32,169 bases of DNA from Candidatus Caldarchaeales archaeon (GTDB lineage Archaea; Thermoproteota; Nitrososphaeria_A; Caldarchaeales; Wolframiiraptoraceae). A program made the translations under genes and the position numbers. The notes below the pieces were generated by a model. It searched no databases and was not told the origin of the DNA. It saw only the letters and a program-made list of their open reading frames with translations. Shown one piece after another: positions 17,316 to 19,791 of this stretch; positions within the stretch are counted from its first letter, which is position 1, and each line of letters opens with the position of its first letter. The stretch is from assembly GCA_039630055.1 (NCBI GenBank), contig JBCNVN010000015.1:1-32169 (forward strand). Direction: 5' to 3'.

Positions 17316-18131
17316 ATGGAGTACAGGAGGTTAGGAAAGACAGAAGTATATCTACCGGTTCTCGGATTCGGAACCTGGGAAGTAGGTGGAAAATTTTTAC
17401 CAGACTATTCTATGGACGATCAAGCAATAGAGATCATCAGAATCGCGGTAAGAAGAGGGATGAAATTAATAGATACTGCTGAGATGTATGCCAGTGGACA
17501 TTCTGAAGAACTGGTAGGAGAAGCTATAAAAGAATTCGATAGAGAAGAAGTATTTATTGCAACTAAAGTATGGAGCTCGAATCTTAGATATGATGATGTT
17601 TTGAGAGCGATGGAGGGAAGCTTGAAAAGACTGAAGATAGATTATGTTGACTTATACCAGATCCATTGGCCGAATCCAGGTATACCATTGAGAGAGACCA
17701 TGAAAGCGATGGAGAAGCTTGTAATAGATGGGAAGACGAGATTCATAGGAGTAAGCAACTTTAATGTGAGAGATATGGAGATGGCCATGTCCTACCTATC
17801 ACGTACAGAGTTAGTATCAAATCAAGTACTCTATAATGTGATCGATAGAGGTATAGAAGAAGAGATACTCCCATTCTGTAGAGAGAACAATATAACCGTT
17901 CTCGCTTATAGACCTCTAGCCAAAGGTTTGGTAGCTAGGGAGCCATATAAGACTAGATTGGAGAATTTTGGGAGAAATTATGGGAAGACAGCTGTACAGG
18001 TAGCTTTGAACTGGGTAATCCGACATGATAATGTAATAGCACTGGTTAAAACGCTGAATCGGCAACATCTAGAAGAGATACTTGGATCTATTGGTTGGAA
18101 GATGACCAAAGAAGACTATGAAGCAATATAG
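17316..18131 (+). CDS. Aldo/keto reductase
   Basis: LGFGTW, IDTAEMY, IATKV, DLYQIHWP, IGVSNF and NQVLYN motifs, with the D/Y/K/H tetrad intact. Confidence 0.92.
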   Translation: MEYRRLGKTEVYLPVLGFGTWEVGGKFLPDYSMDDQAIEIIRIAVRRGMKLIDTAEMYASGHSEELVGEAIKEFDREEVFIATKVWSSNLRYDDVLRAMEGSLKRLKIDYVDLYQIHWPNPGIPLRETMKAMEKLVIDGKTRFIGVSNFNVRDMEMAMSYLSRTELVSNQVLYNVIDRGIEEEILPFCRENNITVLAYRPLAKGLVAREPYKTRLENFGRNYGKTAVQVALNWVIRHDNVIALVKTLNRQHLEEILGSIGWKMTKEDYEAI

Positions 18132-18263: not shown

Positions 18264-18322
18264 GGGCTCAGAGCTTTTAACCATCATCATGGAAATCCGA
18301 CTACCAGGATTCATCAACGCCC
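18264..18322 (-). ncRNA. Box C/D 2'-O-methylation guide sRNA, predicted target tRNA-Lys(UUU) anticodon arm
   Basis: Minus strand reads GGGCG-UUGAUGA(C)-AUCCUGGUAGU-CGGA(D')-UUUCC-AUGAUGA(C')-UGGUUAAAAGCU-CUGA(D)-GCCC. It is 59 nt with 11-12 nt guides, a GGGC/GCCC terminal stem and a TATA-like TTTTAAT about 25 nt upstream. Confidence 0.9.
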
Positions 18323-18429: not shown

Positions 18430-19791
18430 TTAAGTAGATATTGCGCTCTGTATCAACTTTTTTCCATACTCTACTATCTCTCTCAATCTTTCTTCAGTTC
18501 TCGCTTCTGCAGACATCTTTATCTGAGGCATTGTATTAGAAGGTCTGATAAGAATCCATCCATCATCAAAGTATGCTTTAACACCGTCCAGCCTATTCAC
18601 CTTTAATCCTTCCTTCACGAGTTTTTCAGCAATCTTTTCTACTGCTTTCCACTTAATCTCGTCTGGACAGTCGAATACCATAATAGGAGTAGATGGATAG
18701 ATGGGTACCGTATCGACTATCTCTGAAAGCTTAACCTCTAACTTTGATACTAGCTCAGCCATTCTCAGTAGAGCGTAGATTGCATCATCGAATCCCCAAA
18801 CCTCTGGAAAGTAGAGGTGATTGCTCTTCTCTCCGCCTAGAACCGCTCCAAGTCTTCTCATATCTCTAAGCATGAAGGCTCTTCCAACCCTTGTCTCCAC
18901 AGGTTCACATCCACTCTCTAGAATTACCTCGCTTAAAACCGAACTACAGTTTACATCGTATAGAACCTTCCCCCTCTTCTTCAAGTACTTAACGAAGACT
19001 GCGAGAGTTATATCTCCAGGCATAATCCTCCCTTTATCATCTATGAATACAACCCTATCAGCATCTCCATCAAACCCAGCGCCAAAATCTACCTTACCTT
19101 CTTTTACAACTCTCTGAAGATCTCTTAGAGTCTCCTCACTTGGTTCGGGTAGATGTCCTGGGAAGAGACCGTCAGGAACACTATTCAATCCTATAACTTC
19201 TATATCTAATTGTTCAGCGATCTTTGGGAAGACGACGGCTGAAGCTCCATTAGAGTAGTCTACAGCTATCTTTAACCTTCTCTCAACTTCTATCTTCGAT
19301 ATTAGAAACTCGATATACTCTGGTATCAGGTCTCTAGTTACTTCAACACCTTTCCTCTCTGATCTAATCCATCCACCTTCTAGAACCCTCTTCTTTAACT
19401 CCTCCATCCCGCTTCCCTCAGAGACAGTCTCACCTCCTTCTGTAACAAGCTTCATCCCATTCCATTCAGGAGGATTGTGGCTCGCGGTAATCTGTACCCC
19501 GCCCTTCATCTTCCACTGTACTACTCCAAAATAATTTGTAGGTGTAGGGACCAATCCAACATTTACAGTATTACATCCACCCTCTCTCAACCCTTTCGAT
19601 ATACTCTCCATCAATCTTTTACCACTCAATCTAACATCTCTACCTAGTAAGACTTCTCCACTATTTCCGAGCATCGTTGCATAGGATAGTGCCACAGCCT
19701 CTGCAAGTTGATCTGTTAAGTCTTTCCCATATATTCCTCTAATATCGTATGCTCTGAAGACGTTTGGAGAGAACTTGGAAAGGTTACTCAA
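18430..19791 (-). CDS. Phosphomannomutase/phosphoglucomutase
   Basis: FRAYDIRG, TASHNP (phosphoserine), FDGDADR (metal loop), GEKSNH and RPSNT motifs. Confidence 0.95.
   Translation of the reverse strand: MSNLSKFSPNVFRAYDIRGIYGKDLTDQLAEAVALSYATMLGNSGEVLLGRDVRLSGKRLMESISKGLREGGCNTVNVGLVPTPTNYFGVVQWKMKGGVQITASHNPPEWNGMKLVTEGGETVSEGSGMEELKKRVLEGGWIRSERKGVEVTRDLIPEYIEFLISKIEVERRLKIAVDYSNGASAVVFPKIAEQLDIEVIGLNSVPDGLFPGHLPEPSEETLRDLQRVVKEGKVDFGAGFDGDADRVVFIDDKGRIMPGDITLAVFVKYLKKRGKVLYDVNCSSVLSEVILESGCEPVETRVGRAFMLRDMRRLGAVLGGEKSNHLYFPEVWGFDDAIYALLRMAELVSKLEVKLSEIVDTVPIYPSTPIMVFDCPDEIKWKAVEKIAEKLVKEGLKVNRLDGVKAYFDDGWILIRPSNTMPQIKMSAEARTEERLREIVEYGKKLIQSAIST

Follow-up and report, generated by a model that had tools for sequence, protein, structure and literature searches.

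A conserved box C/D sRNA of the Caldarchaeales with a predicted role in ribose methylation of the wobble uridine of tRNA-Lys(UUU)

The DNA analysed here (the window, 32,169 nucleotides (nt) from a Candidatus Caldarchaeales archaeon of the family Wolframiiraptoraceae) carries an aldo/keto reductase gene (17316-18131, plus strand) and a phosphoglucomutase-family gene (18430-19791, minus strand), and between the two lies an unannotated small RNA (sRNA) of the box C/D type. It is encoded on the same strand as the phosphoglucomutase-family gene, 108 nt downstream of it, and none of the open reading frames of at least 40 amino acids in the window overlaps it. Read from 5' to 3', the sRNA consists of GGGC-G, UUGAUGA (box C), the D' guide AUCCUGGUAGU, CGGA (box D'), UUUCCA, UGAUGA (box C'), the D guide UGGUUAAAAGCU, CUGA (box D) and GCCC (Table 1). 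The original prediction, made from the letters alone, had recognised an unannotated box C/D sRNA with a C/D'/C'/D layout and a terminal stem, and motifs, orthologues and a single pattern match agree with it; it had left unsaid that the element resides on the minus strand and that box D' is a CGGA variant.

Table 1. Features of the box C/D sRNA in the window and base counts along its D guide (positions counted from box D; counts over 29 orthologues)
Feature	Position in window	Strand	Basis or base counts	Partner in tRNA-Lys(UUU)
Whole box C/D sRNA, 59 nt	18264..18322	-	intergenic; covariance model score 75 bits	
Terminal stem 5' half, GGGC	18319..18322	-	pairs with GCCC 18264-18267	
Box C, UUGAUGA	18311..18317	-	motif	
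D' guide AUCCUGGUAGU, 11 nt	18300..18310	-	8 bp with tRNA-Lys(UUU)	D loop
Box D', CGGA (CUGA variant)	18296..18299	-	motif	
Box C', UGAUGA	18284..18289	-	motif and orthologues	
D guide UGGUUAAAAGCU, 12 nt	18272..18283	-	12/12 pairs with tRNA-Lys(UUU) gene	
Box D, CUGA	18268..18271	-	motif; invariant in orthologues	
Terminal stem 3' half, GCCC	18264..18267	-	pairs with GGGC	
A/T-rich TATA-like element UUUUAA	18347..18352	-	25-30 nt upstream of sRNA 5' end; read by eye	
D guide position 1			T24, G4, C1	G30
D guide position 2			C29	G31
D guide position 3			G29	C32
D guide positions 4-6			A29	U33-U35
D guide position 7			A26, G3	U36
D guide position 8			T17, C9, A2, G1	A37
D guide position 9			T27, C1, A1	A38
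D guide position 10			G29	C39
D guide position 11			G24, A4, C1	C40
D guide position 12			A10, T9, C5, G5	C41 or intron

The succession of boxes C, C' and D occurs once in the 32-kb window, against 0.01 matches expected from dinucleotide-preserving shuffles. The features that define the class are in place: box C and box D at the ends, D' and C' inside, spacers close to 12 nt (11 and 12 nt), a short terminal stem and a D guide that is complementary to a stable RNA with a Watson-Crick A:U34 pair at N+5. Box C begins with U and not with the R of the consensus RUGAUGA. The RNA folds on itself in the 4-base-pair (bp) terminal stem only (z = -0.44), as is expected because the guide spacers must stay open. 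No Rfam family matches the sRNA at gathering thresholds; at permissive thresholds the matches over it are nearly all to C/D-box families and all stay far below the cut-offs, the best scores being those of sR1 (19.1 versus 45), SNORD113 (23.2 versus 36) and snoPyro_CD (15.7 versus 45). By its sequence, the sRNA belongs to the box C/D class but to no curated Rfam family. The A/T-rich element upstream is possibly its own promoter; reading by eye, we found a similar element 25-35 nt upstream of the 5' end in most of 17 homologues. A scan for bacterial-type promoters and terminators, which does not cover archaeal promoters, returned nothing at the sRNA.

BLAST against 40 relatives retrieved homologues from most genomes of the same genus and from three other genera of the family. 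We built a covariance model from 17 homologues and searched 76 genomes of the order Caldarchaeales with it (in the following, G000 is this genome, G001 onward are relatives, and g1, g2 etc. are genera of the order). Strong matches of 52-80 bits are present in 29 of the 76 genomes, which belong to the Wolframiiraptoraceae and one neighbouring family: 8/8 in g1, including the genome studied here, 12/14 in g2, 3/3 each in g3 and g5, 2/2 in g11 and 1/1 in g13. The remainder contain either weak matches of 22-34 bits only (34 genomes) or none (13 genomes), and the 21 weak matches that were aligned are other sRNAs. Among 37 loci compared, five have the sRNA downstream of the same phosphoglucomutase-family gene, three of them in Ca. 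Geocrenenecus species and one in an Aigarchaeota archaeon.

Across the 29 orthologues box D is invariably CUGA (29/29). Box C reads ATGATGA in 20 cases, GTGATGA in four, ATGAAGA in three and TTGATGA or ATGACGA in one each, so that xTGATGA is kept in 25/29, and box D' is CTGA (10), CGGA (8), CAGA (5), CCGA (5) or CTTA (1), with the final GA in 28/29. As far as the alignment tells, the variation in boxes C, D' and C' stays within the ways known for C/D RNAs. In 16 distinct homologues 70% of the cells of the terminal stem are paired and both sides have changed in three of its four pairs, measures reached by 15-57 of 500 shuffles; covariation lends the stem weak to moderate support. One point weighs against taking any of these counts at face value: the orthologues are kin, so counts across them are not independent. 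We nevertheless regard it as almost certain from the conserved motifs that the element is genuine and represents a conserved guide RNA of the archaeal box C/D type.

As the original prediction had supposed, the gene for the target tRNA lies outside the window. In the assembly, which consists of 80 contigs (1.54 Mb, 39% G+C, estimated completeness 92%), the sRNA resides on contig C7 and the tRNA-Lys(UUU) gene on contig C45 (G000:C45:52512-52626, minus strand). ARAGORN calls no tRNA-Lys(UUU) in this genome and reports the gene as tRNA-His(GUG); the Rfam tRNA model detects it. The gene is interrupted twice. The first intron, of about 28 nt, sits in the 5' strand of the anticodon stem at 30/31 (ambiguous by a base or two), and the second, ACCAUGGGGGAA, comprises 12 nt, can be placed at the canonical 37/38 position and ends with GAA. 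Intron-less orthologous genes in relatives reveal a mature anticodon arm of CCGGG-CUUUUAA-CCCGG. Among the relatives, tRNA-Lys(UUU) genes with both introns, with the first only, with the second only and with none all occur. ARAGORN also predicts introns of unusual length in two further tRNA genes of this genome, 84 nt in tRNA-Val(CAC) (G000:C31:974-1148, minus strand) and 74 nt in tRNA-Met (G000:C16:18442-18603, minus strand).

The D guide pairs at 12 of 12 positions, including one G:U, with GGCTTTTAACCA in the tRNA-Lys(UUU) gene and places U34 at N+5, just as had been proposed. The partner in the unspliced gene reads GGCUUUUAACCA and is matched over all 12 positions; splicing reduces this to 11/12, the last base then being C41. 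The original prediction was thus right that a complement of the guide exists in this gene, while the CCUGG/CCAGG stem and the A41 that it had assumed do not exist: the stem is CCGGG/CCCGG, and what guide position 12 pairs with in this genome belongs to the intron and is not A41. A pairing-aware scan of the whole genome returned three non-self sites for the D guide without mismatch and with at most one G:U, one of which is tRNA-Lys(UUU). This gene is also the best partner among 43 tRNA and tRNA-like genes, the next best run being eight pairs with three G:U, and a single one of 5000 shuffled guides equals the D guide on it. tRNA-Lys(CUU) is mismatched precisely at N+5, and the D guide is therefore specific for the UUU isoacceptor.

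The orthologues follow the same pattern. Positions 2-7 and 9-11 of the D guide are held complementary to G31-U36 and A38-C40 (Table 1), N+5 is an A:U34 pair in 29/29, and in each of the 12 genomes in which both genes were found positions 1-7 pair with the genome's own tRNA-Lys(UUU). Some observations count against this assignment. The D guide is mismatched opposite A37 in seven of these 12 genomes, which leaves an unbroken run of 7 bp; such a run is reached by 149-696 of 5000 shuffled guides; and in G001 the guide has two adjacent mismatches. In the seven genomes the assignment to the tRNA is made because the flanking positions are conserved and not because of the length of the run. tRNAs that read ANN codons normally carry N6-threonylcarbamoyladenosine at position 37 (t6A37), and a free guide position opposite A37 would fit a site that is unable to pair anyway. 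Taking conservation and complementarity together, we consider it likely that the D guide directs 2'-O-methylation of U34 in tRNA-Lys(UUU).

In this genome, as in G003, position 12 of the guide pairs with the base that opens the intron. We considered this as a sign that the precursor is bound and dismissed it, position 12 being random over the 29 orthologues; the match in this genome is probably due to chance. Where the intron diverges past the junction (G002, G016, G022) it is the spliced form that pairs better with the D guide. As position 12 is unconstrained, it provides no evidence for the precursor rather than the spliced tRNA as substrate, and the proposal that the D' guide works on the pre-tRNA and the D guide on the spliced tRNA finds no support. 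Some of the orthologous D guides contain C, and their complement GCTTTTGRCC was searched for in five relatives; apart from the sRNAs, the matches are coding or intergenic DNA and were discarded. In G007, a 12-nt exact complement of the genome's own D guide is found 30 nt downstream of tRNA-Thr(CGU) (L129 = G007:C38:18345-21354); with about 0.2 such matches expected per genome, we judged it a chance occurrence.

The D' guide points at a second region of the same tRNA. In the genome studied here it forms eight unbroken base pairs, one of them G:U, with G15-U20a in the D loop of tRNA-Lys(UUU), numbered here A14 G15 C16 C17 A17a G18 G19. Against the D arm, the guide is mismatched at positions 1 and 3 and makes a G:U pair at position 4, and N+5 is still G:C16. 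The stretch CCAGGAU is indeed present in tRNA-Lys(UUU), but within the D loop (AGCCAGGAUA), and the sequence of D arm and loop, CUCAGCCAGGAU, is unique to tRNA-Lys(UUU) in the tRNA set of this genome. In the relatives the core of the D' guide reads UCCUGGCUG and forms 10-11 bp with C13-U20a in eight of the 12 genomes with both genes; in G008 the pairing is Watson-Crick throughout (11/11), and none of 5000 shuffled guides is as good. Over the 29 orthologues, positions 2-10 of the D' guide are conserved and complementary, and position 5, opposite C16, is G in 29/29. With the N+5 rule, 2'-O-methylcytidine at position 16 (Cm16) is therefore predicted. As judged from complementarity, most of the family has the two guides directed at a single tRNA.

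Several facts speak against such a role of the D' guide. The pairing found in this genome is equalled by 184 of 5000 shuffled guides, and in G040 the D' guide is mismatched next to the target, with 3475 of 5000 shuffles doing as well. Furthermore, the literature found, as far as the accessible text goes, holds no direct precedent for a methyl group at C16, the nearest case being a probable 2'-O-methylation at D-loop position 17 in S. acidocaldarius (PMC7668247, seen in part). On balance, complementarity and conservation make it somewhat probable that the D' guide directs Cm16 of tRNA-Lys(UUU) in most relatives. For the genome at hand the same assignment is doubtful. Here and in the closest relative, G005 (= SKYB24), the three D' guide bases beside box D' have changed, and differently in each, so the function of the D' guide in this genome may be weakened, lost with the guide left as an orphan, or retargeted.

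An alternative that we place not far short of even odds is that the D' guide of this genome no longer serves as a tRNA guide and either drifts as an orphan or has moved to the 23S rRNA site GAUACCAGGGU, at about position 660 of the large subunit (LSU) rRNA of relatives. The mismatches at positions 1 and 3 and the G:U at position 4 suit this idea, as does the drift of the G005 guide at the same end. The LSU site offers nine unbroken pairs to guide positions 3-11 (eight Watson-Crick and one G:U), has C at N+5 and recurs in conserved form in G002, G003, G007 and G009 as well as in G010 and G014. However, the eight pairs with tRNA-Lys(UUU) and the G:C16 pair at N+5 have been kept, and the D' guide of G005 fits the LSU site only by means of four G:U pairs. 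A run of 9 bp is, moreover, not rare in some 4.5 kb of rRNA, and the figure for the LSU site is the bare pair count, read in relatives.

The genome encodes the partner proteins of such an sRNA. The genes for fibrillarin and Nop5 are neighbours on contig C26, and C38 carries the one for L7Ae, with profile scores of 312 bits for fibrillarin, 233 bits for Nop and 103.5 bits for L7Ae; the box C/D methylation machinery is therefore encoded. The fibrillarin match (G000:C26:5710-6390, minus strand) contains one TAG, which may be no more than the stop codon of the gene; its open frame is 229 amino acids long and the profile has 227 positions. By analogy with characterised members, the sRNA would assemble with L7Ae, Nop5 and fibrillarin. 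Its D guide would pair with G30/G31-C40, that is the end of the 5' stem strand, the complete anticodon loop and the first bases of the 3' strand, and this pairing would set the wobble uridine U34 at N+5 for 2'-O-methylation. In most relatives the D' guide would pair with C13-U20a, covering D stem and loop, and C16 of the same tRNA would be methylated. Motifs, their conservation, complementarity and protein genes can be read directly in the genomes; from them we infer that the sRNA is expressed, assembles into a ribonucleoprotein (RNP) and guides the methylations. To the explanation as a whole, a free-standing box C/D sRNA with a D guide for U34 methylation and, in most relatives, a D' guide for C16, we assign a probability of about 75%.

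It is also conceivable, if improbable, that the sRNA is mainly a folding or processing helper that holds the D and anticodon loops open, while methylation would be secondary or would not occur. In favour, the two guides of most relatives are directed at one and the same small RNA, and G18 and G19, which the fold of a tRNA buries, form part of the D' site. A second sRNA family of the order, described below, is built in the same two-site manner for tRNA-Leu. For dual guides on rRNA, a role as chaperones has been put forward in the part of PMC6009581 that was accessible. Against a helper of this kind speaks the Watson-Crick pair at N+5, which is invariant in both guides (29/29), just as selection for methylation predicts.

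A quite remote alternative concerns the D guide, whose real or additional target could be the 16S rRNA site GGCUUUUGC at about position 445 of the small subunit (SSU) gene in relatives. Neither a 16S nor a 23S rRNA gene was found in the assembly by searches with SSU and LSU models, and the rRNA targets of both guides were examined in the rRNAs of relatives; that the organism's own rRNA is not assembled counts against the tRNA assignment. The SSU genes of G001, G007, G008 and G009 contain the 16S site, and those of G010 and G014 a variant of it; the site offers eight unbroken pairs to guide positions 1-8 with U at N+5, and the C found at guide position 8 in nine of 29 orthologues would pair better with the G of this site. 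However, position 8 is also A in two orthologues and G in one, neither of which pairs with that G. The conserved positions 9-11 (T27, G29 and G24 of 29) fit A38-C40 of the tRNA and mismatch the 16S site, and the 17 orthologues with T at position 8 reach up to 10-12 bp with the tRNA (in the five examined with a tRNA-Lys gene) versus 8 bp with the 16S site, which sits in a variable hairpin region. No sense-strand site in the relatives' rRNAs fits any genome's own D guide with at most one mismatch and two G:U pairs; the sole match at an rRNA locus within these limits is in G008, some 200 nt upstream of its SSU gene.

In the same searches, LSU matches to a model of 2987 positions span 3.5-5.5 kb in relatives (G003:C31, G007:C54, G008:C44, G027:C1, G030:C1) and SSU matches to a model of 1478 positions span 2.0-3.2 kb (G008:C37, G004:C30, G033:C7, G027:C2). 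These long spans indicate large insertions in several genomes, which are probably rRNA introns.

The original proposal for the D' guide, methylation of C39 in an intron-containing pre-tRNA-Lys with an unmatched ACU as the 3' end of a 37/38 intron, is refuted by the gene sequence. In its favour, the gene does have an intron of 12 nt for which 37/38 is a possible site. But this intron ends with GAA, the anticodon stem has CCCGG as its 3' strand, no complementarity puts position 39 at N+5, none of the tRNA genes found contains ACCAGGAU or ACUACCAGGAU (for ACCAGGAU and Lys tRNAs, the very observation that the proposal had named as speaking against itself) and the conserved D' guide core of the 29 orthologues complements the D loop instead.

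The weak matches of the covariance model lead to further sRNAs of the order. A second conserved C/D sRNA family accounts for 19 of the 21 aligned weak matches and is found in genera g4, g6, g7, g8, g12 and g14. Its D guide ends with GAUCUUGAGCU and its D' guide is GUCUGACCAGG, or close variants of these. In the member from G010 (L178 = G010:C4:146760-146844) the D guide fits the loop of tRNA-Leu(CAA) with nine unbroken pairs and N+5 on C34, and the D' guide matches CCUGGUCA, which the Leu tRNAs have in their D loops; a tRNA with the loop CUCGAGA gives a longer, but G:U-rich, run with the same D guide. A third type of C/D sRNA is represented by L169 (G021:C35:60175-60259) and L175 (G067:C10:16058-16142). 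Its D guide reads as the complement of a UAA anticodon loop, possibly targeting U34 of tRNA-Leu(UAA), and in both genomes a second-family sRNA is encoded about 1.5 kb away.

It is tempting to speculate that the Caldarchaeales possess a set of related sRNAs, each devoted to one tRNA (Lys(UUU), Leu(CAA) and probably Leu(UAA)), with the D guide on the anticodon loop and the D' guide on the D loop, so that one RNP would grip an unfolded tRNA twice; the free guide position opposite A37 would suit an RNP that meets a tRNA already bearing t6A37. If this were true, t6A37 formation before the encounter with the guide RNP would establish an order of events in the maturation of the anticodon loop.

The sRNA adds an unannotated guide RNA to a lineage for which we found no described C/D sRNAs: among the titles and abstract openings covered, none reports C/D sRNAs from Aigarchaeota. 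It leads to a specific prediction, namely that the wobble uridine of tRNA-Lys(UUU) is 2'-O-methylated in these hot-spring archaea, and U34 of tRNA-Lys is not among the guide targets in the passages of main text covered. Thermophilic archaeal tRNAs are known to carry Um34, s2Um34 and mchm5Um34 (PMC7668247, in part). The pattern among the orthologues, with guide positions 2-7 and 9-11 fixed, the position facing A37 free and position 12 random, amounts to a natural experiment on guide positions. The practical weight is modest; the mechanism is textbook knowledge and the methylation is predicted here from sequence.

In Haloferax volcanii, the free-standing sR-tMet guides formation of Cm34 in elongator tRNA-Met and is said to act on the intron-containing precursor. 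It is like the Caldarchaeales sRNA in being a free-standing guide for a wobble position and differs from it in the tRNA addressed. That the guide is not part of an intron had been put forward as its distinctive trait; in the portions of the two articles cited next, free-standing guides for position 34 are reported from Pyrococcus as well as from Pyrobaculum and are thus not unusual. Pyrococcus possesses free-standing C/D sRNAs for position 34 of the CAA and UAA isoacceptors of tRNA-Leu and of tRNA-Met in addition to the tRNA-Trp intron (PMC7994747). The sRNA described here shares with them the free-standing form, a guide that covers the anticodon loop and position 34 at N+5. It differs in its target, tRNA-Lys(UUU), in its lineage, the Caldarchaeales, and in the D' guide, which in most relatives fits the same tRNA in its D loop. 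The sequences are unrelated (15.7 bits with snoPyro_CD versus a gathering score of 45).

For Pyrobaculum, 32 of 110 C/D families target tRNAs, and sR27 and sR46 are predicted to act on U34 of tRNA-Gln and tRNA-Thr, respectively, with further examples given (PMC6009581, in part). Four families including sR46 have two guides that are both able to target one tRNA, a situation that Lui et al. call rare in the same source (PMC6009581). sR27 and sR46 thus resemble our sRNA as free-standing RNAs with predicted ribose methylation of U34, and sR46 also as a dual guide on one tRNA, whereas tRNA and phylum are different. The intron of tRNA-Trp, which guides Cm34 and Um39 in Haloferax and Pyrococcus (PMC7994747, in part), likewise is a box C/D guide for position 34 of a tRNA that contains an intron. 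It is, however, part of its own target and has position 39 as second site, whereas the sRNA of the Caldarchaeales is intergenic, resides on another contig than its target and has its second site in the D loop, and the introns of tRNA-Lys(UUU) are here only about 28 and 12 nt long. The parallel to a 34/39 pair of methylations that had been drawn initially does not apply, position 39 not being targeted. By this comparison, the sRNA resembles the known wobble guides in the way it would work and is not of the intron-borne Trp type.

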